In this document: piece by piece, positions 10,593 through 46,132 of the stretch
Layout of the letters: each line of letters starts with the position of its first letter
How positions within the stretch are numbered: the stretch's first letter is position 1
Source of the DNA: a virus
Taxonomy: Duplodnaviria > Caudoviricetes
Reading direction: 5' to 3' (one strand)
IMG/VR virus record: IMGVR_UViG_2888055400_000002
Span: 18,064-82,063 of that record
Length of the DNA: 64,000 nt
Notes under the pieces: model-generated
Seen by the model: only the letters and a program-made list of their open reading frames with translations
Database searches by the model: none
Told to the model about the DNA's origin: nothing
Translations under genes and position numbers: made by a program

Positions 10593-10617
10593 GCGTTTTT
10601 TATTGGGGAGTTAACGT

Positions 10618-13600
10618 ATGAGATATGAGAAGAGAGCAAACAGAGCAGCTTTATTAGGTGTTTTAGTCTCCAGTACGATGCTCAAAAAGGTTTTTCTAGG
10701 TGGGATAGGTTTTTCTTGTTTGTTAGCACCTTCAGTGGTTCAGGCGCAAATTACTTCTGATCCTAACGCAGGTAGCGCATATCGTCCGGATATAGTGGCA
10801 GCGCCCAATGGGGTTCCCTCGATTGATATTGTCACACCCAACGGCAAGGGCTTATCGCACAATAAATATTACGATTTTAATATTGGCAATCTAGGTGTTA
10901 TTTTCAACAATCATGCGCAAGAAGTAGGGCAATCGCAGTTGGGGGGCATTATGCCGGGCAATCCGCATTTGCGTTTCACGGGTTCAGCGAAAGTGATTTT
11001 AAATGAAGTGACCAGCGGTAAACGCAGCGCGCTTAATGGTCCAGCGGAAGTTTTTGGGCGCCAAGCTGATGTGATTATAGCCAATCCCAATGGCATAAGT
11101 TGTGATGGTTGTGGTTTTATCAATACGCCCCATGCGACCTTAACCACGGGTGTCCCCGAAATTGATGCGAGTGGTTTTTTGAAAGGCTTTGAGGTGCGAG
11201 GTGGGGACATCACCTTTGGAGCAAAGGGAGCCAATTTTTTCTCTGGCAAGGGGGCTGTTGATATTGTTGATATTGTTTCACGCACGGTGCATTTTGAAGG
11301 AGCTGTTGCGGGCAAGGATATTGGGGTGAGTGCTGGGACGGGGCATTTTGATTATGCTTCTCGTCAAATGAAGGAGCTCACCGATATTACCGGCAAACCG
11401 GAATATGCGATAGATGGGTCAGCTTTAGGGGCTCTACAGGCGGATCAGATTAAACTTGTAGCGACAGAACAAGGCGTTGGCGTTCGGATGCGTCATGATA
11501 TGGCGGCGAATGCGGGGCAGTTGCAGCTTTCTGCTGATGGAAAAATTTCCTTAAAAAATGTTTTTGGTCATGGGGGTGTTGTTCTTCAATCAAAGAGCAA
11601 GAGCGTGTTGGCAAAAAGCGTCACATCGAAAAAACATATTGAGATTGCAGCCAAAAAAGATGTCACATTAGAGATGGTTGGCGCCGATGGTGATTTGAAA
11701 GTAGAGGCGCAGGGGGGGCTTTTATCGATTGCAGGCAAGGCAACATCTGGAGGCAATATGGAGTTGTTTTCGCTTGATGCTATGAAAGTTTCTGGTCTTG
11801 GTTCTGGTGCTGATATAGCTCTTGAAGCGGGTGGAGATTTGAAGCTTGAGGGGGTCGTGTTAGCTGAAGGAAACCTTAAGGCACATGCTGGTGGTGATAT
11901 CCAAGCTGGTCTTTTAGCTGGTGGGGTTGATATGGCAGCAACGGGTGCTGCTGGTGTTGTTGTTCTTGGTGCCCAAGGAGATGTTGATCTTCAAAGTGTG
12001 GGAGGGAGAATTAACGCCGCAAACATTTATGGGGCAGGAGATGTGACCCTAGTTTCGTATGATGGGCTTTTTGTTTCCCAATCGATATTGTCTCACCAAA
12101 ATGTAGCAATCCATGCACAACTAAACACAAATGCCCCTGTTCATTTTGGACAAGTTTTAGCCTATGGCAAGGCCAATATTGAGGGTGGGGCGGTTGATTT
12201 TGCTTCGCTGATGACGGGCGGTGATGCCGTTTTAACGGTAGGCAGCCTTGATGCAGGCACACTGATGACAGGTTTAGATTTTGTTAGCTCTCAAGTGAGC
12301 CCTTCGAATCCTTCCGGTGCTCTTGTTTTTTATGACAAAGGTTCCCTTTCTATCACGGCACAAAGGGGCATAAAGGTTGAACATATTATCAGTGGTGGCA
12401 ATATTGATCTTTTTGCTGGCGACGACATTTATTACGATCAGGTCATTGGCTATGGCACAGCAACATTGACATCGGTATCAGGAGGGATCAGTGTTGAGAA
12501 TGTGCTGTCTGCTAAGGGGGATGTGAGATTGACAGCAAATACTCTCGATTTAAGCAATGATCGTTCTCATATTTACACGCCGCAAACGTTATTTTTAAAT
12601 GCGGATCATATTTATGTTTCGGGCAGCACGCTGATTTATGGCGGTTTAGATTTTAACAGCACCAATGTTCTTGATATTCACCATGCACGGCTACAAGCCA
12701 TTACCACTGAGGGGGGAACAGGAGATATTCTCTTTGTTGCTCCAGGCGTTATGGTGGATGAGACTACATCGGTTTTAGCGGCACGAGATTTTGTGATCAA
12801 AACGGGCCGTTTAGAGAATAGCGGTCAATTAGCAGCAGGGCAGGATTTAGCCTTTAGCGTGACGGGGGATGTGACCAACAGCAAAACGGGCTTAATTTAT
12901 GTGAAGGGCAATGGTGCTCTCAAAGTTGATGGCACTGTGTTGAATGATTTTGGCGCCATAATAGCAGAGGGTGATTTGTTTTTTACCAATGCAGATGGCA
13001 CAGGAAAGAGCCTTTCCCTTGTCAATAAAGCAGGCTTTATTCAAGCCGGTGGCAACTTAAATATCCAAACCAACACCCTCAAAAACGAAGCCGATAGCAC
13101 GCCTGTTATCACGGAAAAAACGGAATATAGCGATATTTCATTCGAAAGATCAAAGGGTTCTGATCAGCTCAGTGATGGGATGTTATATCATGATACGAGA
13201 TTGAATAGCTGGGGCAAAGGAAAGCTTTCTAAGTGGCCGGTATTGAGTGACACGAAGAACTTTATATTTAAACAGCAGATTTGGGCGAGCAAAGAAGAAA
13301 CCTATGGCAAAACAACATTGAAAGACGGAACAGTTTATAAGGCATTTACTTGGGAATATAATGATAACAGAAAAGGCATAGAACAGTATTCCTGGAATGG
13401 TGATAGATGGAGAGAAGGATTCTTGGGGCTCTCGTTCCTAAACGAAAACTGGTCACACATGACAGAAGAAACTGTCACGCAAGAGTTTTCGCATAAACCC
13501 ACTGTTTCGGGGATGATAGAGTCTCACGGCAATCTGATCATTAACGCTGATAGCATTGACAACCATTATAGCATTATAAGAGCGGAAGGAAATGCCGATA

Positions 13601-16600
13601 TTCACGCCAATGTGCTCACCAATTTAGGGGCAACAGCTTATAAAAACACCTATATGCATTGTAATGCAAACACAGATGCTTATTGTTATGGCTATCAAGC
13701 TGATGGAAGCCGCGATGTTTCTTTAGATATAGCCAATGGCAAGTATCGCCAAACTGGCTCAGAAGCTTTGGAGAGCGTTCCTGGTCTTGTCCAAGCGGGT
13801 GGCACGTTGAATTTGGTGGTCGATCAACTCCACAACACGGCAGCGGAAGGTTCGATTACAGGGGATGCGCATTTTGAGGCAAAAGCCGTTGGGGGTGATC
13901 CACTAGGGGCGCTGAGCGGTTTGACTGGGGCTGGTGCTTTGTTTACGCCAAATATCGCCTTAGATGGTACAGCTGGTGTTTCGGATGGGAGTTCATTGCC
14001 TTTACCAAAACCCCAATCGGGTGGAATTGGGGGCACGCTACCCAACCAGAATTTCCTTTATGAAACGCGGGCAGAATTCCTTGATGTTGGCAAGTTTTAT
14101 GGCTCAGCCTATTATTTGAACAGAATTGGCTACAAACCTGATCGGGAGATTTTTTTCTTAGGCGATGCTTATTTTGAAAAGCAATTGATTGAGAAACAAA
14201 TGCGTGATCTGGTTGGTCAGGGTTTGGGAAAAGGTTCCTTTATTCCTGGAAGTGATGCTATTGAACAAGTCAAAACCTTGCTTGATGTCGGGGCGGAATA
14301 TGCAAAAGCACACAATCTCCCTTTTGGTGAGGCTTTGAGTAAAGAACAATTGGCGTCCCTAGAAGCCCCGATGGTGATTTATGTGCGCCAACAGATCAAG
14401 GGCATGGATGTTTATGCACCGGTGCTTTACATCCCTGAAAAAGACAGAGCCTCCTTTGTTTCTGCTGGTGCTTTGATTATGGGGGATGATGTCAATATCA
14501 CCAGCCAGAATACAAGCAATTCAATGATAACCAATTCTGGGCGGATAAATGCAAACCACCAATTGCATGTGCATGGTGGGGATCTCCTCAGTCAAGGGGG
14601 GCATTTTGCTGCTGGTGGTGATGCTGTTTTACTTGCGGAGAAGAATATTCGTTTTGAAGCAGGGCGAACAACGGTTGACGGCGTGGAGACCGTTTTAAAC
14701 ACCGAGGCGCTTTCTACAGGGGGCAATGCGAGCGTGATCGCCAAACAAGATCTCACAGCCTCAGGGGTTAAGATCAGCACAGGGGGCGATCTTGCCATGG
14801 CCACAGAACAAGGCAACTTGACGATAGGTTCAGCAGAAACCCACTACCATGATGAACAGGGTGATGCCACCATGCATCATAAATCTGCGTTAAACTCTGG
14901 AGGATCGACGACACTTGTCTCTGGAAAAGATTTGAATATCTTAGGCTCTGATGTTCAAGCAACGGATAATCTTTCCTTACAAGCAAAAGGCAACGTTTCG
15001 ATTGATGCCACGCGCAACAGTGCCAATAGCCATCACGGGGATCAAACCTCTCATGTTGCCTTACACAATGGCTCTCATTTAAGTTCTGGAAAAGAGACCA
15101 CGGTTCTCTCTGGAAAAGATATTCATATGGCTGCTTCCGATATAGATGCCAAGGGCAATGTTGTTCTTGGTGCACAAGGGGAAATAGCGATAGGGGTGAG
15201 AGAAGATGAAATGGAGTATCATCTTCGCGCCAACAACACCAAAGTCGATATGCAAGCCTTGATTTCCCAGGGATCAACAATAAAATCTGGAGGCGATACC
15301 ACTGTCGTTGCAGGGCAGGATGGAAAGAAGCATGATCTCACCATCACAGGCAGTTCTGTTGCGGCTGATGGCAAGGTGGGGCTAAAAGCCAGCAATGATA
15401 TTGTGATCACCAATGCAGAGGATAGCTTACATTATGAGATGTCGTACCATAAAGACGGGGGAACATTCAGCAGCAGCAAATCCGTGCATAACAAGGTGGA
15501 TGCTGTCCAAGTTTCCGGTTCACTCATATCTGGGGGCAAAGGCGTTGCCATTGACTCAGGAAACAACACGGAAGTTGTAGCCTCGACGCTCATAGCCGGT
15601 AAGGCAGGGGAAACGTCAGGAGAGAAAACACCAGAAGATCAGGCAAAAGCGGATATTACCATTCACTCTGGTGGAAATATTGTTATCAAAGGTGCCCAAG
15701 AACATTTTGATCAGCAACAGCAATCCTCGTCAAGTAGCCTTTTGCACGAGGAATCTTCAGATAAATCTGAATCGCACACCACAACGGTTTCCTCTGTTCT
15801 AGGTGCGACGGGCAACATTGATATGGAAGCGCAAGGGGATGCCAAGATTACTGCTTCTCATCTGCTTTCTGGTCAAGACATCAATGTGAGTGCAGAAGAT
15901 GTGATGATTGATGGCATGACAGACCACCATAGCAGCCATTCAGAGGAGCATGAAACGGGTTTTGGCGTGGGATCAGGCAAGGGCTTTGTATCGATATATG
16001 GAAGTGAAGGCAAAACGCAAAATGAAGAGAGTTTTGAACATCAAGGCTCTTCTTTGAATGCGGATGGCACTCTCAACATCACCGCCAAGAAAAAAGATGT
16101 GACAATTGTGGGCTCTGATGTTGAAGGGGAAAATGTTCATCTTACCGCAGCGCATGATGTTAATGTGCTTGTTGGCCATAATAGCCATAAGTCAAGCTCA
16201 AAAGAAGAGCGGGAAGGTTTTGGCATTCAGTTTGAAAAGAGCAGCAGCAGTGCCTCTGTCGGTGTTGGGGTTGCCAGTGCGAAGGATACGGGTGATGAGT
16301 GGGAAACGACCTCTGTTCAATCGCACATCACGGCGAAGAAAGATGTACAGATCACTGCCGGCAATGATGTGACCATGCAAGCGGCAGATGTTTTGGCGGA
16401 TCGTGATCTAAATATCGATGCCGGCAATAATGTCACACTATCAGAAAGCCATGATATCTCCAATACACAGGAAACCCATGAAAAATCCTTTGCCGGTGTT
16501 ACAACCACTGTCAATGTGGGTGTTCTTGATACTGTACAAGGCTTAAAAGATTCAGCGGACCACATGAATAATAAGGATGGAAATAACACAGTTATTAATG

Positions 16601-18750
16601 GCGTACTGACTGGCATGAAAATCAATAACCTCTTTAACAAAGGTAGGAATTTTGTGAGTTGGCTGAGTGGCAATACAGGGGAAAGGGGCAATATCAGCAA
16701 AGGACTGAGTAGCCCATTAGGAGGGGTGGGGGGCTCCACCAAGGATGCTCTTGCCAATATGGCTGATGTTTCTGCTAGCGTAACCGTGGGCTTTAAGACA
16801 GAGAAAGCAGAAGCCTCTTTTCAAACCTCCACGGCGGTGACAGGAACAATGGAAGCAGGGCGTTCTGTTAACATGCAAGCCCACAAAGGCAGCATCCATG
16901 ATATTGGAGGTGACATTATCGCCGGTACCAATCCTGTTTATGCAAATGATGAGCAGAGTGGAAATATCAACTTAGAAGCAGGGAAAGATATCACCTTTGA
17001 AAGTGCACAAACCACGCAAAGCACACAAAACCACAATGAAAGCGCCTCGGTAAATGTTGGGTATAGCTATGGTACCGGTGGTGCTGGGGGAACAGGCAAT
17101 GCTTCCTTTAGTCAAGGGGAAGGCTCCAGTGAGGAAGTTCAACACAAAAACAGCCATCTTAGTGGCACCGGTACTGTTCACACCAACAGTGGAGGAAACA
17201 CCACATTTGCGGGGGCCGTGGTTTTGGGAGACCATGTAGAGATGAATGTTGGTGGTGATTTGACCATTACCAGCCGCAGTGATACGGGTCAAACCTCTAA
17301 CAAGCAGAAATCTGCTTCTGTTGGGTTTGGTGGCAGCAAAAGTTTTGATGCAGGCTCAACAAGCTTCTCCTTACAAAAGGATCAATCCTCCAGCGATTAT
17401 CACAGTGTTGTGGAGCAATCAGGCATCAAAGCGGGTGATGGCGGTTTTAAGATCAACGTTAAAGATAAAACAACCCTGACTGGGGGGCTGATTGCCAGCA
17501 CCGCGTCGCCAGACAAAAACAGCCTGACCACAGGAAGCATCAGTACCAGTGACATCACCAACAGTGCGAGTGCACAAGCCAGCAGCCATGGTTTTAGCCT
17601 TTCTGGGAACGACACGATAAAAAACATTGCCAAAAATGCTTTAAGTCATGGGAAAGCCAAGGATGCGGCGGACGGGGAAACCAAATCCGCCATCAGTGAT
17701 GGCACCATCATCTTAACCGATGCAACCAACCAGAGGGCGATGGGGCAAGATGCTGGACAAATCATTGATGCCCTCAACCGCAACACCGCAGCAGCCCACC
17801 AAGCGGTAGTGCCGCTGGATACCACATCGCTTGAGGGAGCAGTGCATAATCGCCTCGATATGATCAATGATTTATCAGATGAAGGATTTGGATACCTTGG
17901 TAAAATTTATAAAATCTCATATGTCAAAGAGCATTTTGAGGGTGAGGTTTTGCATGATGAAAATGGCAATGTCATCTATGCAACAGATAAAAATGGGATC
18001 CCTATAAGAGATAGCTATGGAAGAAAAATACCTCTGTATCATTATTTAACGCCAGAGGAAGAGAAGCATTTACAAAAAGGCTCTGATGGCAACCGGCATA
18101 TGTTCTACAATGGAATTCGCACCTCACCAGATGACGCTGCGCGCTATGCTGTCCAGTTTGCTGATAATGATCATGATCCCCTTTATTTTACAGTTTTTCC
18201 ACAAGCTGAAGACAAGCTCGTAGAGTTAGGGGTAGCGGTTTTTCAGAAGTTCCTAGAAGGTAGAGTTTTTTTTGGATTAACCAATTCAACAAAGAAGTTC
18301 CAGAATTTTCTATCTCTCTATGGCAATGATGGAGCGATTGTTGATGCGCATAGCCGTGGTAGCTTGACAGTAGGCAATGGAATGCGTGACTTTAAAAAAC
18401 GTGGCGTCCACGATATAGCAGAAAACACAAGTGTTAATCTTTTTGGTCCAGCTTTTAACGCTCAAGACATGGCAAATACGTTATATATCTTAAGTAATGG
18501 CAAGCAAACCTATGTGAACTTGGAAAACCATAAATATGACTTTGTTGGCGGATGGTTAGCTGGTCACAATCCTTATACCTTTGACAAAGTACCCGCTGGT
18601 AATGGTCCTTGGAAAGAGGGGGGGAAAATAATATTTAGTTATCCCAGTCCCCATGCTTGTTATGGGCATGCGGATAAATCATGTACATCGCGCTATGGTT
18701 CACCTCATCGTATAAAAGTTCATTCAACTTCTACAGGGAGGAAAAAATGA
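10618..18750 (+). CDS. fhaB: Filamentous haemagglutinin-family TpsA / CdiA-like exoprotein with a lipase-like C-terminal domain
   Basis: TPS domain (GLSHNKY, ILNEV, NPNGISCDGCGFIN), long Gly/Ser/Thr haemagglutinin repeats, C-terminus with AHSRG motif, stop overlaps a lipoprotein start (ATGA). Confidence 0.92.
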   Translation: MRYEKRANRAALLGVLVSSTMLKKVFLGGIGFSCLLAPSVVQAQITSDPNAGSAYRPDIVAAPNGVPSIDIVTPNGKGLSHNKYYDFNIGNLGVIFNNHAQEVGQSQLGGIMPGNPHLRFTGSAKVILNEVTSGKRSALNGPAEVFGRQADVIIANPNGISCDGCGFINTPHATLTTGVPEIDASGFLKGFEVRGGDITFGAKGANFFSGKGAVDIVDIVSRTVHFEGAVAGKDIGVSAGTGHFDYASRQMKELTDITGKPEYAIDGSALGALQADQIKLVATEQGVGVRMRHDMAANAGQLQLSADGKISLKNVFGHGGVVLQSKSKSVLAKSVTSKKHIEIAAKKDVTLEMVGADGDLKVEAQGGLLSIAGKATSGGNMELFSLDAMKVSGLGSGADIALEAGGDLKLEGVVLAEGNLKAHAGGDIQAGLLAGGVDMAATGAAGVVVLGAQGDVDLQSVGGRINAANIYGAGDVTLVSYDGLFVSQSILSHQNVAIHAQLNTNAPVHFGQVLAYGKANIEGGAVDFASLMTGGDAVLTVGSLDAGTLMTGLDFVSSQVSPSNPSGALVFYDKGSLSITAQRGIKVEHIISGGNIDLFAGDDIYYDQVIGYGTATLTSVSGGISVENVLSAKGDVRLTANTLDLSNDRSHIYTPQTLFLNADHIYVSGSTLIYGGLDFNSTNVLDIHHARLQAITTEGGTGDILFVAPGVMVDETTSVLAARDFVIKTGRLENSGQLAAGQDLAFSVTGDVTNSKTGLIYVKGNGALKVDGTVLNDFGAIIAEGDLFFTNADGTGKSLSLVNKAGFIQAGGNLNIQTNTLKNEADSTPVITEKTEYSDISFERSKGSDQLSDGMLYHDTRLNSWGKGKLSKWPVLSDTKNFIFKQQIWASKEETYGKTTLKDGTVYKAFTWEYNDNRKGIEQYSWNGDRWREGFLGLSFLNENWSHMTEETVTQEFSHKPTVSGMIESHGNLIINADSIDNHYSIIRAEGNADIHANVLTNLGATAYKNTYMHCNANTDAYCYGYQADGSRDVSLDIANGKYRQTGSEALESVPGLVQAGGTLNLVVDQLHNTAAEGSITGDAHFEAKAVGGDPLGALSGLTGAGALFTPNIALDGTAGVSDGSSLPLPKPQSGGIGGTLPNQNFLYETRAEFLDVGKFYGSAYYLNRIGYKPDREIFFLGDAYFEKQLIEKQMRDLVGQGLGKGSFIPGSDAIEQVKTLLDVGAEYAKAHNLPFGEALSKEQLASLEAPMVIYVRQQIKGMDVYAPVLYIPEKDRASFVSAGALIMGDDVNITSQNTSNSMITNSGRINANHQLHVHGGDLLSQGGHFAAGGDAVLLAEKNIRFEAGRTTVDGVETVLNTEALSTGGNASVIAKQDLTASGVKISTGGDLAMATEQGNLTIGSAETHYHDEQGDATMHHKSALNSGGSTTLVSGKDLNILGSDVQATDNLSLQAKGNVSIDATRNSANSHHGDQTSHVALHNGSHLSSGKETTVLSGKDIHMAASDIDAKGNVVLGAQGEIAIGVREDEMEYHLRANNTKVDMQALISQGSTIKSGGDTTVVAGQDGKKHDLTITGSSVAADGKVGLKASNDIVITNAEDSLHYEMSYHKDGGTFSSSKSVHNKVDAVQVSGSLISGGKGVAIDSGNNTEVVASTLIAGKAGETSGEKTPEDQAKADITIHSGGNIVIKGAQEHFDQQQQSSSSSLLHEESSDKSESHTTTVSSVLGATGNIDMEAQGDAKITASHLLSGQDINVSAEDVMIDGMTDHHSSHSEEHETGFGVGSGKGFVSIYGSEGKTQNEESFEHQGSSLNADGTLNITAKKKDVTIVGSDVEGENVHLTAAHDVNVLVGHNSHKSSSKEEREGFGIQFEKSSSSASVGVGVASAKDTGDEWETTSVQSHITAKKDVQITAGNDVTMQAADVLADRDLNIDAGNNVTLSESHDISNTQETHEKSFAGVTTTVNVGVLDTVQGLKDSADHMNNKDGNNTVINGVLTGMKINNLFNKGRNFVSWLSGNTGERGNISKGLSSPLGGVGGSTKDALANMADVSASVTVGFKTEKAEASFQTSTAVTGTMEAGRSVNMQAHKGSIHDIGGDIIAGTNPVYANDEQSGNINLEAGKDITFESAQTTQSTQNHNESASVNVGYSYGTGGAGGTGNASFSQGEGSSEEVQHKNSHLSGTGTVHTNSGGNTTFAGAVVLGDHVEMNVGGDLTITSRSDTGQTSNKQKSASVGFGGSKSFDAGSTSFSLQKDQSSSDYHSVVEQSGIKAGDGGFKINVKDKTTLTGGLIASTASPDKNSLTTGSISTSDITNSASAQASSHGFSLSGNDTIKNIAKNALSHGKAKDAADGETKSAISDGTIILTDATNQRAMGQDAGQIIDALNRNTAAAHQAVVPLDTTSLEGAVHNRLDMINDLSDEGFGYLGKIYKISYVKEHFEGEVLHDENGNVIYATDKNGIPIRDSYGRKIPLYHYLTPEEEKHLQKGSDGNRHMFYNGIRTSPDDAARYAVQFADNDHDPLYFTVFPQAEDKLVELGVAVFQKFLEGRVFFGLTNSTKKFQNFLSLYGNDGAIVDAHSRGSLTVGNGMRDFKKRGVHDIAENTSVNLFGPAFNAQDMANTLYILSNGKQTYVNLENHKYDFVGGWLAGHNPYTFDKVPAGNGPWKEGGKIIFSYPSPHACYGHADKSCTSRYGSPHRIKVHSTSTGRKK

Positions 18751-19160
18751 AAAAAGCCTTTAAATTATCCAGTGCGATAGTTCTGTTTATTATAGCTGGG
18801 TGTAATTTTTTTAAGCCTTCTCCAGGTTACTTATATATGTGGGAGAAACCGGGGGCAGATTTTACTGAAGTAGGAAAAGCTTTGTTGGAATGCGGAATGC
18901 CAACACCTTATGATGTCGATCCAGAAAATAGAAAGCTTAGTGTTAATGAGGATGCAACAATTTATGCTTGCATGATCCAAGCAGGATTCCGCTATAAAGA
19001 TGAAGAGGTGTCGAGGGCTGGAGGATGGTGTTATACATTTAAAGAGGAAAACCTACCCATTTGTCGTCCAGGGGCTATCATTCCGCAACGAAGTGTCAAG
19101 AAGCGCTTAAATAGCCCTTTTTGTAAAAAATATAAAAATGCACCTGAATGCCAACCTTAA
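18747..19160 (+). CDS. Lipoprotein, putative cognate immunity protein
   Basis: MKKAFKLSSAIVLFIIAG-C lipobox; translationally coupled to the TpsA; Cys pattern LLECG..ACMIQAG..WC..PICRPG..SPFC..PEC. Confidence 0.8.
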   Translation: MKKAFKLSSAIVLFIIAGCNFFKPSPGYLYMWEKPGADFTEVGKALLECGMPTPYDVDPENRKLSVNEDATIYACMIQAGFRYKDEEVSRAGGWCYTFKEENLPICRPGAIIPQRSVKKRLNSPFCKKYKNAPECQP

Positions 19161-19180
19161 GTCTTGCTTGTGATGATCAA

Positions 19181-19227
19181 CAATCCGCCATCCTTGCCTT
19201 CGCTTGGACTGGCGGGATTGTTTTCTT
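19181..19227 (+). terminator. Stem-loop after the immunity gene (copies at 21849-21888 and 27070-27109)
   Basis: CAATCCGCCA...TGGCGGGATTG followed by a T-rich tract; three copies. Confidence 0.55.
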
Positions 19228-19338
19228 AATCCACCATCTCAATTTAGTCCTACCTGTCTTAAACACAGTATAGATAGAAAATATCAACAGGCTTTTGAGC
19301 TTTTTTATCGTAAATAAATCCATTGAAAGAGGGGAAAA

Positions 19339-19698
19339 ATGAAGAAAACTTTAAAACTATTGAGTTGCATGGCTCTGTTAAGTATCGCTGGATGTGTTAA
19401 CTCAATTCCCTCACTTTCTCCAGCAATATGGAGAAAGAAAATACTTTTAGAATGTGGAGTACCGGATTTTGATAAGGTTGTGGCGCTAGATTTGAATCAA
19501 TTTGCTAGTATTGAAATGTGTATGGCGCAATCAGGTTTTCGCCCTAGCTTTCCAATACAAGGTTGGTGTGAAAATCATAAATCCGAAAAGCTTCCCATTT
19601 GTCGTCCTGGTGCTGTCATGCCTCAACGAAGTGTTGAGAGACGTTTAAAGAGCCCTTATTGTAAAAAGCATCCAGAACAATATGAATGTAAACCTTAA
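19339..19698 (+). CDS. Lipoprotein, orphan immunity paralog
   Basis: Lipobox SIAG-C; same Cys framework as 18747..19160. Confidence 0.8.
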   Translation: MKKTLKLLSCMALLSIAGCVNSIPSLSPAIWRKKILLECGVPDFDKVVALDLNQFASIEMCMAQSGFRPSFPIQGWCENHKSEKLPICRPGAVMPQRSVERRLKSPYCKKHPEQYECKP

Positions 19699-21418
19699 CC
19701 ACAATGAAAGCGCCTCGGTAAATGTTGGGTATAGCTATGGTACCGGTGGTGCTGGGGGAACAGGCAATGCTTCCTTTAGTCAAGGGGAAGGCTCCAGTGA
19801 AGAAGTTCACCAGAAAAACGCCCATATTAGTGGCACGGGTACTGTTCACACCAACAGTGGAGGAAACACGACACTTGCAGGGGCCGTGGTTTCTGGAGAC
19901 CATGTAGAAATGGAGGTTGGGGGTGATTTGACCATTACCAGCCGCAGTGATACGGGTCAAACCTCTAACAAGCAGAAATCAGCTTCTGTTGGTTTTGGTG
20001 GCAGCAAAAGTTTTGATGCAGGCTCAACAAGCTTCTCCTTACAAAAGGATCAATCCTCTAGTGATTATCACAGTGTTGTGGAGCAATCAGGCATCAAAGC
20101 GGGTGATGGCGGTTTTAAGATCAACGTTAAAGATAAAACAACCCTGACCGGAGGACTGATTGCGAGCACCGCGTCGCCAGAAAAAAACAGCCTGACCACA
20201 GGAAGCATCAGTACCAGTGACATCACCAACAGTGCGAGTGCACAAGCCAGCAGCCATGGGGTTAGCGTTTCTGGGAACGACACGATAAAAAACATTGCCA
20301 AAAATGCTTTAAGTCATGGGAAAGCCAAGGATGCGGCGGACGGGGAAACCAAATCCGCCATCAGTGATGGCACCATCATCCTGACAGGTGCAACCAACCA
20401 GAGGGCGATGGGGCAAGATGCTGGACAAATCATTGATGCCCTCAACCGCAACACCGCAGCAGCCCATCAGGCAGTAGTGCCGCTGGATGCCACATCACTT
20501 GAGGGGGTGATACATAATCGCCTCAATATGATCAATGATTTATCAGATGAAGGATTTGGATACCTTGGTAAAATTTATAAAATCTCATATGTCAAAGAGC
20601 ATTTTGAGGGTGAGGTTTTGCATGATGAAAATGGCAATGTCATCTATGCAACAGATAAAAATGGGATCCCTATAAGAGATAGCTATGGAAGAAAAATACC
20701 TCTGTATCATTATTTAACGCCAGAGGAAGAGAAGCATTTACAAAAAGGCTCTGATGGCAACCGGCATATGTTCTACAATGGAATTCGCACCTCACCAGAT
20801 GACGCTGCGCGCTATGCTGTCCAGTTTGCTGATAATGATCATGATCCCCTTTATTTTACAGTTTTTCCACAAGCTGAAGACAAGCTCGTAGAGTTAGGGG
20901 TAGCGGTTTTTCAGAAGTTCCTAGAAGGTAGAGTTTTTTTTGGATTAACCAATTCAACAAAGAAGTTCCAGAATTTTCTATCTCTCTATGGCAATGATGG
21001 AGCGATTGTTGATGCGCATAGCCGTGGTAGCTTGACAGTAGGCAATGGAATGCGTGACTTTAAAAAACGTGGCGTCCACGATATAGCAGAAAACACAAGT
21101 GTTAATCTTTTTGGTCCAGCTTTTAACGCTCAAGACATGGCAAATACGTTATATATCTTAAGTAATGGCAAGCAAACCTATGTGAACTTGGAAAACCATA
21201 AATATGACTTTGTTGGCGGATGGTTAGCTGGTCACAATCCTTATACCTTTGACAAAGTACCCGCTGGTAATGGTCCTTGGAAAGAGGGGGGGAAAATAAT
21301 ATTTAGTTATCCCAGTCCCCATGCTTGTTATGGGCATGCAGATGAAAGGTGTCGACAAGCTTACGGAGCCTCTCATCGTATAAAAGTTCATTCAACTTAT
21401 ACAGGGAGGAAAAAATGA
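19697..21418 (+). pseudogene. Orphan cdiA 3' module 1 (5'-truncated)
   Basis: Near-identical to cdiA 17029-18750 except the last ~20 codons; no signal peptide or TPS domain. Confidence 0.85.
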
Positions 21419-21825
21419 AAAAAGCCTTTAAATTATTAACTGTAATAGTTTTGTTAATTATTGCTGGATGTGAGGATTTTTTCAAGCCTCCTCTAGGTAA
21501 CGTATATGGGTGGGAGAAGCCAGGTGCAGATTTTACTGAAGTAGGAAAGGCATTGTTAGAATGCGGAATGCCGAGTCCTGAATATCTTGATAGAGAAAAT
21601 AGGCGCTTGAGCTATAATGATAGTGCAACAATTTATGCTTGCATGATCCAAGCAGGATTCCGTGATAAACTTAAAAAAGAGGTGGGAACTTGGTGTGAGA
21701 ATTTTAAAGCCGAAAATCTCCCCATATGTCGACCAGGCGCTGTCATCCCAAAACGAAGTGTCAAAAAGCGCTTGAATAGCCCGTTTTGTAAAAGAAGTCC
21801 TGTGCAGCCTGAATGCCAACCTTAA
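21415..21825 (+). CDS. Lipoprotein, putative immunity protein of orphan module 1
   Basis: ATGA overlap; lipobox IIAG-C; family Cys pattern. Confidence 0.8.
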   Translation: MKKAFKLLTVIVLLIIAGCEDFFKPPLGNVYGWEKPGADFTEVGKALLECGMPSPEYLDRENRRLSYNDSATIYACMIQAGFRDKLKKEVGTWCENFKAENLPICRPGAVIPKRSVKKRLNSPFCKRSPVQPECQP

Positions 21826-22007
21826 GTCTTGCTGCTGATCACAATCAACAATCCGCCATCCTTGCCTTTGCTTGGACTGGCGGAATTGTTTCCTTAATTC
21901 ACCATCTCAATTTAGTCCTAACCTGTCTTAAACACAGTATAGACAGAAAATATCAACAGGCTTTTGAGCTTTTTTATCGTAAATAAATCCATTGAAAGAG
22001 GGGAAAA

Positions 22008-22487
22008 ATGAAGAAAACTTTAAAACTATTGAGTTGCATGGCTCTGTTAAGTACAGCTGGATGTCAGTTGGGAACTCCTCCCCCATCAACGTTGGCTTTA
22101 TGGGAAAAGTCTGGAACAGATCGGGCTGTAATCGAACAATCACTTTTAAAATGTGGCTGGAAACCAGTTTATGCTTCTTCTAGTGATATGAATGCCTATG
22201 CAAGTGAATTTGCCTCAGTTTATGAGTGCATGAAAAAAGCAGGTTATCGATATAAATTGCAGGATTCAAAGGGGATTTATTTTACACAACCTCCGAAAAG
22301 TGACTCGTTCCTAACCGATCTCATGATAGCTGGATATCAGAAATTTATGGACAATGATACTTTTGGTGTCAGCAATACGACCAGAAAAGAACGGGCTATG
22401 ATAGCGCATTTTGAAAATGAAAGAAAACGTCAACAAACGAAAAAATCTTTGCAAAAGCGATCATCAAAGCGTCCTACTCATTCTTAA
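22008..22487 (+). CDS. Lipoprotein, divergent immunity-family member
   Basis: Signal peptide nearly identical to 19339 (MKKTLKLLSCMALLS.AGC); WEK.G.D..LLKCG..ECMKKAGYRYK retained, C-terminal half unrelated. Confidence 0.7.
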   Translation: MKKTLKLLSCMALLSTAGCQLGTPPPSTLALWEKSGTDRAVIEQSLLKCGWKPVYASSSDMNAYASEFASVYECMKKAGYRYKLQDSKGIYFTQPPKSDSFLTDLMIAGYQKFMDNDTFGVSNTTRKERAMIAHFENERKRQQTKKSLQKRSSKRPTHS

Positions 22488-22541
22488 AGAGAGAGTTGGA
22501 CAAAAAGCACGAATGATGAAGGGAGTCAAAATAGTGCCCTT

Positions 22542-25500
22542 CTTATTCAAGCGGGTGGCACGTTGAATTTGGTGGTCGATCAACTCCGTAACACGGCAGC
22601 GGAAGGTTCGATTACAGGAGATGCGCATTTTGAGGCAAAAGCCGTTGGGGGGATCAGCACCGGGGGTGATCTTGCCATGGCCACAGAACAAGGTGATTTG
22701 ACGATAGGATCAGCAGAAACCCATTACCATGATGAACAGGGTGATGCCACCATGCATCATAAATCTGCGTTAAACTCTGGAGGATCGACGACACTTCTTT
22801 CTGGAAAAGATTTGAATATCTTAGGCTCTGATGTTCAATCCCATGATGATTTGAACTTAAAAGCTGAGAGGAATATTTCGATTGATGCCACGCGCAACAG
22901 TGCCAATAGCCATCACGGGGATCAAACCTCTCATGTTGCCTTACACAATGGCTCTCATTTAAGTTCTGGAAAAGAGACCACGGTTCTCTCTGGAAAAGAT
23001 ATTCATATGGCTGCTTCCGATATAGATGCCAAGGGCAATGTTGTTCTTGGTGCACAAGGGGAGATAGCGATAGGGGTGAGAGAAGATGAAATGGAGTATC
23101 ATCTTCGCGCCAACAACACCAAAGTCGATATGCAAGCCTCGATTTCCTAGGGATCAACAATAAAATCTGGAGGCGATACCACTGTCGTTGCAGGGCAGGA
23201 TGGAAAGAAGCATGATCTTACCATCACAGGTAGTTCTGTTGCGGCTGATGGCAAGGTGGGGCTGAAAGCCAGCAATGATATTGTGATCACCAATGCAGAG
23301 GATAGCTTACATTATGAGATGTCGTACCATAAAGACGGGGGAACATTTAGTAGCAGCAAATCTGAGCATAACAAGATTGATGCTACCCAAGTTTCCGGTT
23401 CACTCATATCTGGGGGCAAAGGCGTTGCCATTGACTCAGGAAACAACACGGAAGTTGTAGCCTCGACGCTCATAGCCGGTAAGGCAGAGGAAGCATCAGG
23501 AGAGAAAACACCAGAAGATCAGAAACAAGCGGATATTACCATTCACTCTGGTGGAAATATTGTTATCAAAGGCGCCCAAGAACATTTTGATCAGCAACAG
23601 CAATCCTCGTCAAGTAGCCTTTTGCACGAGGAATCTTCAGATAAATCTGAATCGCACACCACAACGGTTTCCTCTGTTCTGGGGGCAACGGGCAACATTA
23701 TCACACAATCAGACAAAGAGACCACAATCACTGCTTCTCATATGTTTGCAAATGAAGATATTCATGTGACGGGAGAAAATGTGACGATTGATGGCATGAC
23801 GGACCACCATAGCAGCCATTCACAGACCCATGAAACAGGTTTTGGTGTGGGATCAGGCAAGGACTTTGTATCGATCTACGGGAGTGAGGGAAAGACAGAA
23901 AATGAAGAAAGTTTTGAGCATCAAGGCTCTTCTCTCAATGGAAAAAATATCACCATCACGGCCACCAAAAAAGATGTGAATGTGGTGGGCTCTGATTTTA
24001 CTGCGCAAGAAAATATTCATGTTTCGGCAGCCCATGATATCAATGTTTCACCTGGTCACAATAGCCATAAGTCAAACAGCCAAGAAGAGCGGGAAGGTTT
24101 TGGCTTTCAGTTTGAAAAGAGCAAAAGTGGTGCCTCTGTCGGTGTCGGGATTGCCAGCGCGAAAGACACAGGGGACCAATGGGAAAATACCAATACACCA
24201 TCTAATTTTAAAGCGGGCAAAGATGTACAGTTTAGTGCCGATCATGATGTGAATTTACAAGCGACAAATGTTTTGGCAAATCGTGATGTCAACATTGATG
24301 CTGGCAATACTATCACACTATCAGAAAGCTATGATACCTCTAACGCAAAAGAAAAGCACGAAAAGTCTTTTGCTGGTGTGACAGGCTCTGTCAATGTTGG
24401 GGCTCTTGGTACCGTACAGGGCATTAAAGATGCAGTAAAGCAAGCTAAAAATAAGGATGACAAACACCATATTGCCAATGGTCTTATTGCTGGTCTAAAA
24501 GGCTATAATCTCTTTACCAAAGGCAAAAGTTTTTTCAATTTTCTGACTGGTAACACAGGAGAAAGGGGCAACACCGCAAGAGCTCAGGGCAATGTAGCAG
24601 GAAATTTGGCTGGCTCTACCAAGGATGCTCTTGCCAATATGGCTGATGCTTCTGCGAGTGTGACTGTGGGCTTTAAGACAGAGAAAGCGGAAGCCTCTTC
24701 TCAAACCTCCACGGCGGTAACAGGAACAATGGAAGCAGGGCGTTCTGTTAACATGCAAGCCCACAAAGGCAGTATTCATGGTGTTGGAGCTGACATTATC
24801 GCCGGTACCAATCCAGTCTACGCATTAAACAATGATGAGCAGAGTGGAAATATCACCTTGGAAGCAGGAAAAGATATTACCTTTGAAAGTGCACAAAACA
24901 CGCAAAGCACACAAAACCACAATGAAAGCGCCTCGGTAAATGTTGGGTATAGCTATGGTACCGGTGGTGCTGGGGGAACAGGCAATGCTTCCTTTAGTCA
25001 AGGGGAAGGCTCCAGTGAGGAAGTTCAACACAAAAACAGCCATCTTATTGGCACAGGCACTGTTCACACCAACAGTGGAGGAAACACCACACTTGCGGGG
25101 GCAGAGGTTTCTGGAGACCATGTAGAGATGAATGTTGGGGGAGATTTGACCATTACCAGCCGCAGTGATACGGGTCAAACCTCTAACAAGCAGAAATCTG
25201 CTTCTGTTGGGTTTGGTGAGAGCAAAAGTTTTGATGCAGGCTCAACAAGCTTCTCCTTACAAAAGGATCAATCCTCTAGTGATTATCACAGTGTTGTGGA
25301 GCAATCAGGCATCAAAGCGGGTGATGGCGGTTTTAAGATCAACGTTAAAGATAAAACAACACTGACTGGGGGGCTGATTGCGAGCACCGCGTCGCCAGAC
25401 AAAAACAGCCTGACCACAGGAAGCATCAGTACCAGTGACATCACCAACAGTGCCCATGCTAAAGCCAGTAGCCATGGGGTTAATGTTTCTGGTGGCGGTG

Positions 25501-26654
25501 TTTTGCAACAGGGGAAATATGGCGTCATAAAAAACGTGGCTAAAAATGCTTTAAGTCATGGAAAAGCCAAGGATGCAGCGGAAGGGGAAACCAAATCTGC
25601 TATCAGTGATGGGACTATCATCCTTACTGATACAACTGGACAGAGGGCGATGGGGCAAGATGCTGGACAAATCATTGATGCCCTCAACCGCAACACCGCA
25701 GCAGCCCACCAGGCTGTAGCACCGCTGGATGTAGCACTGCTTGAGGGAGCCGTGCATAATCGCTTAGACATGATCAATGATTTATCGGATGAAGGATTTG
25801 AAATCGCTGGTCAGGGCTTTGTAAACATGTTTATCAAAGAGCATTATCTGGCTACCGTTGAGCACGATGAAAATGGCAATGTGATCTATGCAAAAGATGA
25901 AAATGGGAAATATATAAAAGACAGCCATGGAAACCCACAGCCACAATATCATTATTTAACGCCTGAGGAACAGCAGAATTTACAAAAAGGTTCTGATGGC
26001 AAGGTTCATGTTTTCCTCAATGGTATTCTTACAACACCCGATGAAGCAGCCCATAATGCGGTTCAGTTGGTTGATAACAAGAATGATCCACACTATTTTC
26101 TGATGTTTCCCCATAGCGATTCGCTCTTGGTAGAAGGGGTTATTGCAGGGTATCAGTATTTTTTAGAAGGTAATTTGGGTGGTCTGACCAATTCGGCAAA
26201 GAAGTACCAGAATCTGTTGTATAGCTTTGGCAATAAAGGATTGCATGTTGATGCCCATAGCCGCGGCAGTATGACAGCGGGTAATGGATCGTATAATTTA
26301 GCAAAGCAGGGTGTTCACGGTATAGCAAAGGAAACAACGATTAATTTTTTTGGACCAGCTTTTAATACTCAAGACATGGCAGATACGTTATATATCTTAA
26401 GTGATGGCAAGCAGGATTATGTTAATTTGGAAAATCATAAATATGACTTTGTTGGTGTAAAGATTGGCAAAAATCCTTATACCTTTGAACAAATACCCCC
26501 TGGAAGTGGTCCCTGGAAAGAAGCAGGGCAAATATTTAAGGGCTACCCCAGTGTCCATGCTTGTTATGGTCATCCGAGTGATGCTTGTACAAAGTTCTAT
26601 GGTTTGCCTAATCGTACGCCAATTTATTCAAAATATTCAGGGAGGAAAAAATGA
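22542..26654 (+). pseudogene. Orphan cdiA 3' module 2 with an internal deletion, a nonsense codon and a divergent lipase-like C-terminus
   Basis: Starts with homology to cdiA ~13786, jumps to ~14772 at 22652, CAG>TAG at 23148-23150, then open to 26654; AHSRG motif retained. Confidence 0.85.
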
Positions 26655-27049
26655 AGAAAATTTTGAAATTATTAAGTGGTCTCATTCTGTTAACTATCGC
26701 TGGATGTAATATCGATAAGCCTTCTCCAGGGGCTCTGAGTATGTGGGAGAAGCCTGGTGCAGACTTTACTGAGATAGGAAAAGCATTGCTAGAATGTGGC
26801 ATGCCAACGCCTTACGATATTTTTCCAGAAAACCAACAACAGAGCATTAATGCAAAAGCAACAATTGATGCATGCATGGTTCAAGCAGGATTTCGCTATA
26901 AAGGAAGAGGTGACTGGTGTTATACTTTTAAAGAGAAAAATCTTCCCATTTGTCGTCCAGGGGCTATCATTCCGCAACGAAGTGTCAAGAAGCGCTTAAA
27001 TAGCCCTTTTTGTAAAAAATATAAAAATGCACCTGAATGCAAGTCTTAA
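26651..27049 (+). CDS. Lipoprotein, putative immunity protein of orphan module 2
   Basis: ATGA overlap; lipobox TIAG-C; 3' end nearly identical to 18747..19160. Confidence 0.8.
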   Translation: MKKILKLLSGLILLTIAGCNIDKPSPGALSMWEKPGADFTEIGKALLECGMPTPYDIFPENQQQSINAKATIDACMVQAGFRYKGRGDWCYTFKEKNLPICRPGAIIPQRSVKKRLNSPFCKKYKNAPECKS

Positions 27050-27215
27050 GTCTTACTTGTGATGACCGACAATCCGCCATCCTTGCCTTTGTTTGGAATG
27101 GCGGAATTGTTTCCTTAATCCACCATCCATAACATTGCGTCACAGGATGGATTTTGCTATATTCTTATCGGTTTATAAGAGAAAGCCTTGTCCATCCTTA
27201 TGTGACAAGGTTTTT

Positions 27216-27422
27216 TTATGCCACATCACTGAGATGTTGACGTTGCGTTTTGGCTTTTTCAATCACATCCATCAGATCCGATTGTAACCAACGCGATAAA
27301 GAACCAAATTTTAAAGGCTTTGGTAAAGATCCATTGGTGACATGCCGACGGAATGTTGAAACGCTTATATGCAATAATTTTGCACTTTCGCGATCTGTAA
27401 GAAGAACATCATTTTCAGTCAT
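27216..27422 (-). CDS. alpA: AlpA-family HTH regulator/excisionase
   Basis: LLTDRESAKLLHISVSTFRRHVTNGSLPKPLKFGSLSRW pattern; next to an integrase. Confidence 0.85.
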   Translation of the reverse strand: MTENDVLLTDRESAKLLHISVSTFRRHVTNGSLPKPLKFGSLSRWLQSDLMDVIEKAKTQRQHLSDVA

Positions 27423-27595
27423 AACTTATCCTTTCAATCTAAAAAAATATTAACAAATCATAAGTATTTATTAACCATATTTTGTTGAACTTGGAAAGTA
27501 AGTTTATTCATAAAAAACAGTACTTTATGATGTATTTTCTCATTTGATAATTTATGAGTCTTATTGAAACGAAATGAGAGAACAAAGAGAGAAAG

Positions 27596-27604
27596 TTATC
27601 CACA
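27596..27604 (+). promoter_or_regulatory. Perfect DnaA box
   Basis: TTATCCACA; conserved in island B at 46167-46175. Confidence 0.4.
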
Positions 27605-27641
27605 GATAATGGAATAAAAATGGGGTACAAGACCCCATCTA

Positions 27642-28808
27642 TTAAGATTGCCCCGTGACATAAGCCGCCCATTTATCCATATAAACACGGCGCTGTTCTA
27701 AATAGTCAGTACGACGGTAGGCACGTTCTACTTGTCCACCGACCACATGACCTAGAATGGTTTCTGCTACCTCATAGGGAGCATCGGTTGTTTCTGCTAG
27801 CCAATCCCTTAAACTAGACCGAAATCCATGCGGGCAGGCATTAAGTCCAGTTTTTTGCATGTAGATTGACATGCTCCTCTCAGCAAAGGGACCATGACTT
27901 TTAAGAGAAAAAAAGAAATCATTACGAGAAAGCAGGCGCGCTTGTTTCAAAATTTCTAATGCCTCTGATGATAAAGGCACGCGAAACTCTGTTGTAGCAT
28001 CACGCCTTCCTTTCATATTCTCAGCAGGGATGGTCCATATATCACCATCAACTTGATCTTTATGGATATGACGCAAAGGATTTGTACGAACACCTGTCAG
28101 AATAAGCAGACGCAAAGCCAATTGTGTCATAGTTGGTGTTTTGCAGAGTGTTTGATAAAAAGCCGGTATCTCTTTCCAATCCATAGCAGGCATATTTTTA
28201 ACTTTATGGCGTTGTTTTCCCAAGAGTGCGCGTGCTTTTTCTGTTGCTTGTAAATCAACATCTAAACCCAAGGCAGCAGCATATTTGAGACATATATTAA
28301 GACGATTAAGAGCTCTATAAGCTGTTGCAGCTTTTGCATGCCAGATAGGAGCAAGTGTATTGCGTATATCGGTTTGTGTAATCTCTGAAACCGGCATACA
28401 ACCTAATTTAGGGAGAATATAAAGTTTTAAAGGTAAAAACCACTCACTATTTTTACCATCTCCTTTTAATTCTGCTTTACGACTTTCAAAAGCATCCACG
28501 GCAATATCTTTTAAATAATGAAGATTACGCATTGCCTCACGCTTTTGTTTGTCACGTTCTTTAATGGGGTCACGACCCTCATGCAAAACAGAACGCCATT
28601 GGGTTGCCAATTCACGGGCTTTTTTTAAAGAGACATTTCTTAAGGCACCCAAGCCCATTTCACGACGCCGCCCGTGGATGGTATAGCGATAAAGCCATTG
28701 AGCACCCCCATCTTTACGCTTATGAAGTAACAAGCCGGCACCATCATTATATTTGCCAGCCCCCAATGTTGCGACAGCCCTTGCATTAAGACGATTCATA
28801 AGAGGCAT
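27642..28808 (-). CDS. P4-family tyrosine integrase
   Basis: Arm-binding N-terminus (GKYNDGAGLLL...RRREMGLG...VSLKKARE); catalytic R (GVRT), K (MKG), HGFRS, LGH and AY. Confidence 0.95.
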   Translation of the reverse strand: MPLMNRLNARAVATLGAGKYNDGAGLLLHKRKDGGAQWLYRYTIHGRRREMGLGALRNVSLKKARELATQWRSVLHEGRDPIKERDKQKREAMRNLHYLKDIAVDAFESRKAELKGDGKNSEWFLPLKLYILPKLGCMPVSEITQTDIRNTLAPIWHAKAATAYRALNRLNICLKYAAALGLDVDLQATEKARALLGKQRHKVKNMPAMDWKEIPAFYQTLCKTPTMTQLALRLLILTGVRTNPLRHIHKDQVDGDIWTIPAENMKGRRDATTEFRVPLSSEALEILKQARLLSRNDFFFSLKSHGPFAERSMSIYMQKTGLNACPHGFRSSLRDWLAETTDAPYEVAETILGHVVGGQVERAYRRTDYLEQRRVYMDKWAAYVTGQS

Positions 28809-28969
28809 TTTTGCTCCTTTCTAAACGGTTTTTTACCCACACGATAACCCCGCTTGTGATGTGCAAGTAAGTGACTTTAATTGATTGAACATAAGATGAT
28901 TTGAGATGAGAGAATCTTACAATATTCGGGGGTCTAATTCAATATGCAAAACAGTAAATTATCATTACA

Positions 28970-28982
28970 AATCAATGCCTTG
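28970..28982 (+). promoter_or_regulatory. IHF consensus site at the end of island A
   Basis: AATCAA-TGCC-TTG matches WATCAANNNNTTR. Confidence 0.55.
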
Positions 28983-28984
28983 TC

Positions 28985-29071
28985 TTAGAGCGTCAACGCA
29001 TTCTGAATGAACAAATGCACAATCAGATTATGCGTTCACGAGCAGATACATATAGAGCACGAAGCATTTAG
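28985..29071 (+). pseudogene. 3' remnant of a phage gene interrupted by island A (portal by position, unproven)
   Basis: Open frame LERQRILNEQMHNQIMRSRADTYRARSI* from the island boundary to a TAG 12 nt before the next ATG. Confidence 0.5.
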
Positions 29072-29083
29072 AAAGGTGAAAGA

Positions 29084-44786: not shown

Positions 44787-44788
44787 TA

Positions 44789-46129: not shown

Positions 46130-46132
46130 TAG

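Follow-up and report, generated by a model that had tools for sequence, protein, structure and literature searches.

How do two nearly identical integrases come to lie beside unrelated targets within one prophage? The question is raised by a 64,000-nt stretch, hereafter the window, of the 82-kb IMG/VR provirus record IMGVR_UViG_2888055400_000002. The integrase genes, int1 and int2, are given in window coordinates, which equal record coordinates minus 18063. The source organism is Bartonella vinsonii, and a locus (L003) of a B. vinsonii subsp. vinsonii genome holds a copy 100% identical to int1. Comparison of the window with itself (self-BLAST) revealed two homologous islands, inverted relative to each other, with int1 in island 1 and int2 in island 2. 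The answer that we favor, with somewhat better than even confidence, is that int1 and int2 are lambda-like integrases of the P4/CP4-57 type from a many-copy island family, whose landing would be set mainly by a 7-nt overlap and secondarily by half-site bases read by particular integrase residues. The integrase features on which the argument turns are these:

27642..28808, minus strand: int1, a 388-aa open reading frame (ORF) encoding the P4-type, putatively heterobivalent tyrosine integrase of island 1, from its Pfam domains
44963..46129, plus strand: int2, a 388-aa ORF, the 90% identical int1 paralog of island 2
28230..28499, minus strand: int1 core-binding domain, codons 104-193, with 18 of the 38 differences from int2
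27840..27908, minus strand: int1 hypervariable patch, codons 301-323 (loop and helix 310-319, ahead of H327-x-x-R330), with 11 of the 38 differences and the top family entropy
45863..45931, plus strand: int2 hypervariable patch, codons 301-323, from protein and codon comparison with int1

BLASTP aligned the two proteins without gaps at 350 of 388 identities. None of the 38 differences falls in residues 1-85, 37 fall in residues 86-323 and one (G353S) in residues 324-388, while residues 302-323 alone hold 11. The hypergeometric probability of placing at most one of 38 differences in the 150 terminal residues is 7e-8, and that of placing at least 11 in the 22 residues 302-323 is 6e-7; the clustering is beyond chance. 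The genes differ at 114 nucleotides, 25 of them in codons 301-330, with 51 codons changed synonymously and 38 non-synonymously. These split into 6 synonymous and 0 non-synonymous in codons 1-85, 38 and 37 in codons 86-323, and 7 and 1 in codons 324-388. The original prediction for this DNA had described the first ~85 and last ~60 residues as near-identical, which is borne out, and all four difference segments that it had quoted are present, at residues 115-123, 156-170, 239-243, and 300-316.

Both proteins contain Arm-DNA-bind_3 (E 1e-15), Phage_int_M, and Phage_integrase (PF00589, E 2e-11 and 2e-10) domains and have the R...HxxR...H...Y catalytic domain of tyrosine recombinases. R241, H327, R330, H354, and Y364 are invariant among 30 family members. 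R241 aligns with lambda R212 in a profile alignment, and the other four presumably hold the catalytic roles that motif spacing assigns to them. Conserved regions of 175 nt and ~100 nt, the putative arms, are shared by the islands.

The pair belongs to a large family. The 120 best protein relatives of the integrase are all from Bartonella, are 81-94% identical, and bear database names that include 'Prophage CP4-57 integrase' and 'IntA'. In public genomes, tblastn located 417 stretches encoding a relative, and 46 of 90 Bartonella genomes gave a match at E<=1e-150. One Bartonella genome of 2.7 Mb (G036) carries 21 integrase copies. Its complete islands, about 14-15 kb long, number at least 17, and many of them lie in two stretches of the chromosome, 744-860 kb and 2.03-2.10 Mb. 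The 175-nt arm upstream of int is common to every family locus, and homology ends at the same point. A first set of 76 usable flanks resolved into 63 non-homologous sites; in an enlarged set of 119 unique copies, 94 of 117 flanks were non-homologous. Mean family entropy is 1.24 bits at positions where int1 and int2 differ versus 0.28 bits where they agree. Hypervariable patches cover residues 116-125, 158-168, 203-206, 222-229, and 301-323, and they reassort between family copies.

The attachment (att) core was defined as a 12-nt half-site C, a 7-nt overlap O, and a 12-nt half-site C'. C', at the int-proximal end, follows the family pattern N N C/T A A N N N A T T G. The far end of an island consists of a T-run followed by 17 nt, the last 12 of which are C, an imperfect inverted copy of C'. 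O is located between each half-site and the flank. This site model was tested on 27 paired ends, drawn from three complete genomes and from island 2. O was identical at all seven positions, at the exact predicted place, in 18 of the 27 pairs, which represent 17 distinct sites; three further pairs resemble a 1-nt indel version of TCATTAA. The overlap is enclosed by inverted half-sites, C' and the reverse complement of C agreeing at positions 6, 7, 9, and 10 in 14-17 of 17 islands. O varies from island to island (GTGAACG, TTGCATC, TTTTGCT/TTTTGCC, AGGCATA, GCTCCAA, AACCACG), and two island types are each present at two unrelated loci with the same O. Such a layout is that of lambda-type sites. 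Among five candidate end pairs in genomes G001 and G003, four had no repeat and one had no match at the distal end; mispairing or rearrangement may account for these.

Many different insertion sites and variable outermost nucleotides at the island ends would also be expected of low-specificity transposition like that of Tn916 or CTnDOT, which tolerates heterology in the overlap and takes flanking coupling sequences with it. Such heterology is not what the 18 fully identical overlaps display, and they are unexpected from coupling-sequence heteroduplexes. The P4-type architecture with Arm-DNA-bind_3 and the lower rank of Tn1549 Int, relative to lambda Int, among the fold matches also speak against this mode, which we regard as the least probable of the explanations considered.

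In the window, island 2 offers the cleaner view of the core:

44768..44779, plus strand: half-site B at attL of island 2, in the tail-fibre target (empty-site alignment, site model)
44780..44786, plus strand: O (AACCACG) at attL of island 2, within the 10-nt direct repeat GGTAACCACG at 44777-44786 (empty-site alignment, site model)
44787..44798, plus strand: C' half-site of island 2, TACAACACATTG (homology break, site model)
60668..60679, plus strand: C half-site of island 2, CAATGCGCCGGT, reverse complement ACCGGCGCATTG (far-end comparison, site model)
60680..60686, plus strand: O (AACCACG) at attR of island 2 (empty-site alignment, site model)
42993..44786, plus strand: 5' part of the split prophage tail-fibre gene (uninterrupted orthologs, empty-site alignment)
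60680..62342, plus strand: 3' part of the split tail-fibre gene, the Mtd-like receptor-binding end (Pfam, empty-site alignment)

The perfect repeat GGTAACCACG bounds island 2 at 44777-44786 and 60677-60686. An empty site was found in B. vinsonii subsp. arupensis, where both flanks abut within an uninterrupted tail-fibre ORF of 1374 aa (genome G003); a second uninterrupted ORF, of 1246 aa, is present in genome G005. The 10 nt at the empty-site junction differ between the two subspecies, so that more or less of GGTAACCACG may predate the insertion. A direct repeat, ATTGATTT, present at both island ends had been considered as the crossover core and was rejected in view of the empty site and the fit of the 7-nt O model. 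Sequencing runs searched for the island 2 junction contained small shares only (<=0.17). The C-terminal part of the tail fibre (60771-62342) matches the second domain of Mtd, a domain known from proteins that diversity-generating retroelements target; no reverse transcriptase was seen in the 64-kb window.

Island 1 ends differently:

28973..28984, minus strand: C' half-site of island 1, GACAAGGCATTG, at the int-proximal end (homology break common to all family loci; site model)
28985..28991, minus strand: O (GCTCTAA) at attL of island 1, portal site A (same O at attR of B. vinsonii island L096)
28985..29080, plus strand: what is left of the prophage portal gene at its 3' end (the portal ORF of G003, 675 aa, is intact)

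Its attL lies at portal site A and its attR at portal site B, where O is ATAACAG. These sites are ~1.7 kb apart inside the intact 675-aa portal gene of relatives, and that ~1.7 kb is lost here. The other portal remnant occupies record positions 15157-15352, and what survives of the portal gene is its first ~200 nt and last ~100 nt. Both sites are used elsewhere, A as attR of another B. vinsonii island (L096) and B as an attL with the same O in another B. vinsonii prophage copy (L007). In G036, which is B. machadoae-like, an int1 ortholog 94% identical to int1 sits in a clean insertion at site A with GCTCCAA on both sides (L179/L264). Island 1 is therefore without a single target, since its ends come from two different sites, and it appears to be a hybrid formed by recombination between islands at sites A and B that removed the middle of the portal gene. 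It is predicted not to excise precisely, its two overlaps being mismatched. A solo 36-nt motif resembling a far end, without an adjoining island (L109, G001:C1:333481-333515), had been a candidate for a tRNA-adjacent ancestral site and was dropped after ARAGORN and Rfam found nothing nearby.

The original prediction had called the island ends shared and the flanking targets unrelated. The second statement is correct, the targets being the prophage portal gene for int1 and the prophage tail-fibre gene for int2. The first applies to the arms, with 175 nt upstream of int 95% identical between islands 1 and 2 and about 105 nt at the far end identical; it fails at the outermost 12-17 nt, the core half-sites, where C' is GACAAGGCATTG in island 1 and TACAACACATTG in island 2. 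Unrelated flanks, together with differences in DNA-contacting domains, could suggest strict retargeting, with protein changes directing each integrase to a specific target of its own, int1 to the portal gene and int2 to the tail-fibre gene. The family survey already contradicts this proposal, which is very unlikely: with 94 of 117 flanks non-homologous, copies identical in all variable patches occupy different sites (L075/L067, L063/L081), and one island type with one overlap is found at two different loci. The B half-site in the tail-fibre gene, moreover, matches C' at only 2 of 12 positions, and island 1 joins two different sites.

Residue-base trends were counted among the 119 unique family copies. 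N311 occurs with C at half-site position 6 in 34 of 37 copies, K311 with G6 in 25 of 28, R318 with G6 in 31 of 37, and R311 with G7 in 15 of 17. In the core-binding domain, I168 occurs with T at position 1 (32 of 57) and N168 with G or A there (33 of 38). Residues 311, 318, 320, and 321 track positions 6-7, residue 168 tracks position 1, and residues 161, 165, 190, and 193 are tracked by position 2, so that the core-binding residues 161, 165, 168, 190, and 193 co-vary with positions 1-2. For core position 6, the int nucleotides most strongly associated are nt 953, 933, and 961/962, that is, codons 318, 311, and 321. Mean association z is 3.63 in nt 901-975 versus 0.45-0.63 in nt 256-900. Core positions 6, 7, and 8 find their best partner in codons 310-318, about 1.1 kb away, whereas just 2 of 65 control arm positions do so. 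The z-score alone proves little; the location of the partners is what stands out.

Two further sets of tests do not depend on island ancestry, namely, half-site symmetry and target matching. Of 17 distinct islands, 14 have the same base at position 6 of C' and of the reverse complement of C (shuffled 9.0, p.002), and 16 have it at position 7 (shuffled 7.8, p<.0002). The target half-site B' matches C' at position 6 in 10 of 17 (shuffled 5.7, p.008) and at position 7 in 9 of 17 (shuffled 5.3, p.028), and it matches the reverse complement of C in 11 of 17 (p.002) and 10 of 17 (p.004), respectively. Over the 94 non-homologous flanks, the target half-site B matches the C' of the island beside it 44 times at position 1 (shuffled 31, p.003), 54 times at position 2 (shuffled 36, p<.0005), 49 times at position 6 (shuffled 32, p<.0005), and 41 times at position 7 (shuffled 31, p.013). 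The G:C ratio at target B position 6 is 15:4 with K311 versus 7:11 with N311 (Fisher p.02), and 19:3 with R318 versus 21:24 with Q/K318 (Fisher p.003).

The window's own pair can be read against these trends. int1 has N168, R311, and Q318 with C' bases G1, G6, and G7, and int2 has I168, T311, and K318 with T1, C6, and A7. N168/G1 and R311/G7 in int1 and I168/T1 and K318/C6 in int2 fit the family, and T311 of int2 is uninformative.

The co-varying positions lie where the original prediction had put the int1/int2 differences, in the core-binding domain and the strand-helix segment before HxxR, places through which lambda-type integrases read the core. Domain assignments, a profile alignment with lambda Int (hhalign probability 18.7%, E.0013), and a modeled helix at 310-319 are consistent with that placement. 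In the alignment, residues 310, 311, and 315 fall on lambda Int 282, 283, and 287, and residues 161-168 on lambda 138-145. The AlphaFold model, used for secondary structure and Foldseek ranking only, would put 311, 315, and 318 on one face of the helix. The best fold matches in Foldseek were the lambda Int-DNA complexes 1z1b, 1z1g, and 5j0n. A phmmer search of the PDB returned isolated arm-binding or core-binding domain structures only and did not find lambda Int.

Several results count against the reading that we favor. Nine of the 27 end pairs have no identical O, and four earlier candidate pairs have no repeat. Control arm positions reach z of 10-70 with nearby int sites, and shuffle z is inflated by relatedness. 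Independent pairs, taken from a tree built without the patch, go the same way in 3.3-5.0 cases versus 0.1-0.2 in the opposite direction, too few for the sign test (p.06-.5). At position 6, T311 is mixed (C 12, G 5, A 1), as is R311, and Q318 of int1 with G6 runs counter to the family majority. The dN/dS ratio between int1 and int2 is 0 in codons 1-85, 0.25 in 86-200, 0.11 in 201-300, 0.53 in 301-323, and 0.08 in 324-388; family-wide it is 0.45 in the patch, 34 of 394 pairs exceed 1, and no region does. The dS values range along the two genes from 0.11 (N-terminus) to 0.72 (patch). To these may be added the low hhalign probability quoted above and the poor quality of the AlphaFold model (pLDDT 58.9). 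The uneven dS points to mosaic ancestry, and recombination would contribute to the int1/int2 pattern because dS varies so widely.

These results suit an account by neutral mosaicism, in which positions under relaxed constraint are shuffled among paralogs, the association with core bases is haplotype structure, no variant has a DNA preference of its own, and nothing beyond the overlap and a weak, generic consensus of the half-sites sets the targets. A dN/dS below 1 everywhere, uneven dS, patches that reassort among copies, high z at control DNA positions, and a non-significant independent-pairs test are all in keeping with it. It is at odds with an association that skips about 650 nt of unassociated codons before reappearing in the patch, with target half-sites B and B' that are not inherited with the island and still match island bases at positions 6-7 above shuffled pairings, and with C and C' sharing their base at these positions in most islands. 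We judge it unlikely, while giving it real weight. The co-variation statistics are suggestive, not decisive, and the specificity that they describe appears loose.

Our preferred reading can be put as follows. int1 and int2 would be paralogous heterobivalent integrases of two copies of one Bartonella island family, and each island would recombine through a C - 7-nt O - C' core. Identity of the 7-nt overlap, checked DNA against DNA, would be the main factor in the choice of landing site, with a secondary part played by weak recognition of the half-sites. In the latter, bases 1, 2, 6, and 7 may be read by hypervariable integrase residues, of which 168 and 161/165/190/193 belong to the core-binding domain and 311/318/320/321 to the helix that precedes HxxR. 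The 38 differences between int1 and int2 would then be a sample of the family-wide co-variation, the identical N-terminus would fit the shared arm regions, and mosaic recombination between paralogs would be part of the pattern. The original prediction had envisaged a family of retargeted integrases with a readable specificity code. The portion that survives is that hypervariable residues co-vary with bases 1, 2, 6, and 7, as trends in islands and targets that the independent-pairs test leaves short of significance. The portion that does not is the protein as sole determinant, given an O that 18 of 27 pairs have in identical form at both ends and that varies among islands; 94 of 117 flanks non-homologous and island 1 without a single target likewise go against it. 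Selection on the patch, for which dN/dS had been proposed as a check, finds no support at 0.53, a ratio below 1 as in every other region.

The nearest parallel is the integrase pair of phages lambda and HK022, heterobivalent tyrosine integrases, as those here are predicted to be, that act on a C-O-C' core with a 7-bp overlap and in which a few residues of the core-binding and catalytic domains switch core-site specificity. We take the determinants to include lambda S282, G283, R287, N99, and E319; our search found no paper naming 282, 283, or 287. The Bartonella integrases are ~16-25% identical to lambda Int, and, unlike that pair from two phages, their family has dozens of paralogs, up to 21 per genome. 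The overlap too varies between Bartonella copies, and specificity here is predicted from sequence. For lambda/HK022, the accessible text of PMC6007267 speaks of 'five key residues' and that of PMC10863862 names N99 of lambda Int as a specificity residue. Another likeness is to phage mv4 integrase, which requires an identical 7-bp overlap of almost free composition and has degenerate flanking half-sites, as described in the available part of bioRxiv 10.1101/2023.11.06.565760. For enzymes of this kind, a requirement for identical overlaps whose composition is little constrained is established there. Overlap identity and degenerate half-sites are common to both systems, whereas mv4 Int belongs to the Tn916 family, serves a single phage that has tRNA-Ser as its one natural site, and is not diversified into many copies.

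In domain architecture the Bartonella integrases equal the P4/CP4-57-type enzymes (Arm-DNA-bind_3, formerly DUF4102) of islands and of P4-like and PICI-like satellites, and these satellites have the same int-alpA-primase-helicase (DUF3987) module as the Bartonella islands. P4/CP4-57-type elements typically use the 3' ends of tRNA genes. The defined Bartonella sites, unlike these, are inside prophage portal, tail-fibre, and scaffold genes (the last at loci L034 and L039) and not at tRNA or transfer-messenger RNA (tmRNA) 3' ends. ARAGORN found 0 tRNA genes in the 64-kb window, and the sole tRNA-Thr of the record is 14.6 kb from island 1, at the prophage end.

Where the islands land was surveyed with 60 non-homologous flanks of at least 600 nt, compared with the window prophage by tblastx at E<1e-6. 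Half of them (30 of 60) match homologs of this one prophage, spread over its early, terminase, head, tail, and lysis genes. B. grahamii prophages Ia and Ib amount to about 91 kb of 2.34 Mb in the part of PMC2697382 available. By that B. grahamii share, the result would suggest a roughly ten-fold enrichment of landing in prophage. Both tolerance of insertion in prophage DNA and a real phage link are possible explanations; the 30 of 60 flanks are compatible with such a link and are no proof of one. A filter for motifs resembling island ends flagged 0 of the 94 non-homologous flanks, and one flank (L078) contains, farther upstream, a degenerate stretch resembling an end; remnants of old islands may therefore be present among the flanks in a few cases.

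The two islands and their accessory genes are laid out as follows:

1..28984, minus strand: island 1, extending 2.7 kb upstream of the window to record position 15353 (self-BLAST, Pfam, junctions)
44787..60679, plus strand: island 2 (self-BLAST, Pfam, junctions)
27216..27422, minus strand: alpA-like helix-turn-helix (HTH) gene of island 1, an excisionase or regulator (Pfam HTH_17; PHROG excisionase and transcriptional regulator)
46350..46550, plus strand: alpA-like gene of island 2 (domain/PHROG annotation)

Besides int2 and alpA, island 2 encodes a split primase and a DUF3987 helicase; its Type ISP restriction enzyme is intact, and it has YdcK-repeat genes. Its DUF7146/Toprim primase and DUF3987 helicase complete the int-alpA-primase/helicase module that marks satellites. 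The primase (46624-47545) is present as two 144-aa ORFs, probably through a frameshift. Island 1 carries int1, the alpA-like gene, a two-partner secretion (TPS)/CdiA-like locus, a degraded Type ISP enzyme, and YdcK-repeat genes; primase and helicase are absent, and the TPS locus stands in their place. This locus, at 8826-27127, encodes a ShlB/FhaC-type transporter and a 2710-aa TPS/haemagglutinin-repeat protein. Downstream are repeated 3' fragments with small ORFs, typical of CdiA-like toxins and orphan toxin-immunity cassettes. The Type ISP restriction-modification enzyme of 1666 aa is intact in island 2 (49755-54755) and broken into four ORFs in island 1 (3039-8011), the copies sharing 78% DNA identity. 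Arrays of YdcK beta-solenoid/hexapeptide-repeat paralogs occupy the far end of both islands (205-1591 and 56180-59991).

One prophage lies between and around the islands. Its tRNA-Thr, early genes, terS, and terL are upstream of the window, its head, ejection, and tail genes are at 29084-44837, and the tail-fibre end and lysozyme follow 60680. Two neighboring 126-aa phage genes at 31217-31989 are paralogous (74% DNA identity, same PHROG). The prophage has lost its portal, and its tail-fibre gene is split. With just the two ends of the portal gene left, it should not form particles on its own.

Matching Bartonella elements, in organism group and in content (prophage, fha/hec operons, integrases), are the prophage I and fha-repeat islands of earlier genome studies. 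The accessible text of PMC2697382 tabulates prophages Ia/Ib and fha-repeat islands, and that of PMC6257571 describes an identical sequence of 15 kb, containing fha, integrase, portal, and terminase, that serves as a recombination site; in the parts available, neither paper gives a definition of att cores, of overlaps, or of integrase specificity. Our literature search found no paper on the att cores or integrase specificity of this Bartonella family.

Going one step further, the islands might form a naturally self-diversifying integrase system retargeted at two levels, in which a mutable 7-nt overlap in the DNA of every island copy is combined with a recognition helix (311, 315, 318, 321) and a core-binding helix (161-168, 190-193) that co-evolve with half-site bases 1, 2, 6, and 7, and in which the islands are satellite-like parasites of one Bartonella prophage lineage. 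We offer this tentatively, as a possibility that falls somewhat short of an even chance. If it is true, its rules would be K311-G6, N311-C6, R311-G7, I168-T1, and N168-G/A1.

Lambda-type integrases are hard to retarget because the links between residues and core bases are known for very few natural pairs. More than 100 natural variants are available in this family together with their sites and, for many, the targets chosen. If the trends hold, it would provide natural data from which a residue-to-base code could be worked out for a few positions of the half-site, and it would show how a change of 7 bases in its DNA lets an island move elsewhere. The finding accounts for a known trait of rodent-lineage Bartonella, the repeated, fha-carrying, prophage-tied islands that drive rearrangements, and in the window the islands broke the portal and tail-fibre genes of their host prophage. 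Were the system indeed self-diversifying, its islands would land in portal, scaffold, terminase, tail, and lysis genes, disable the prophage, and seed it with defence and competition cargo.

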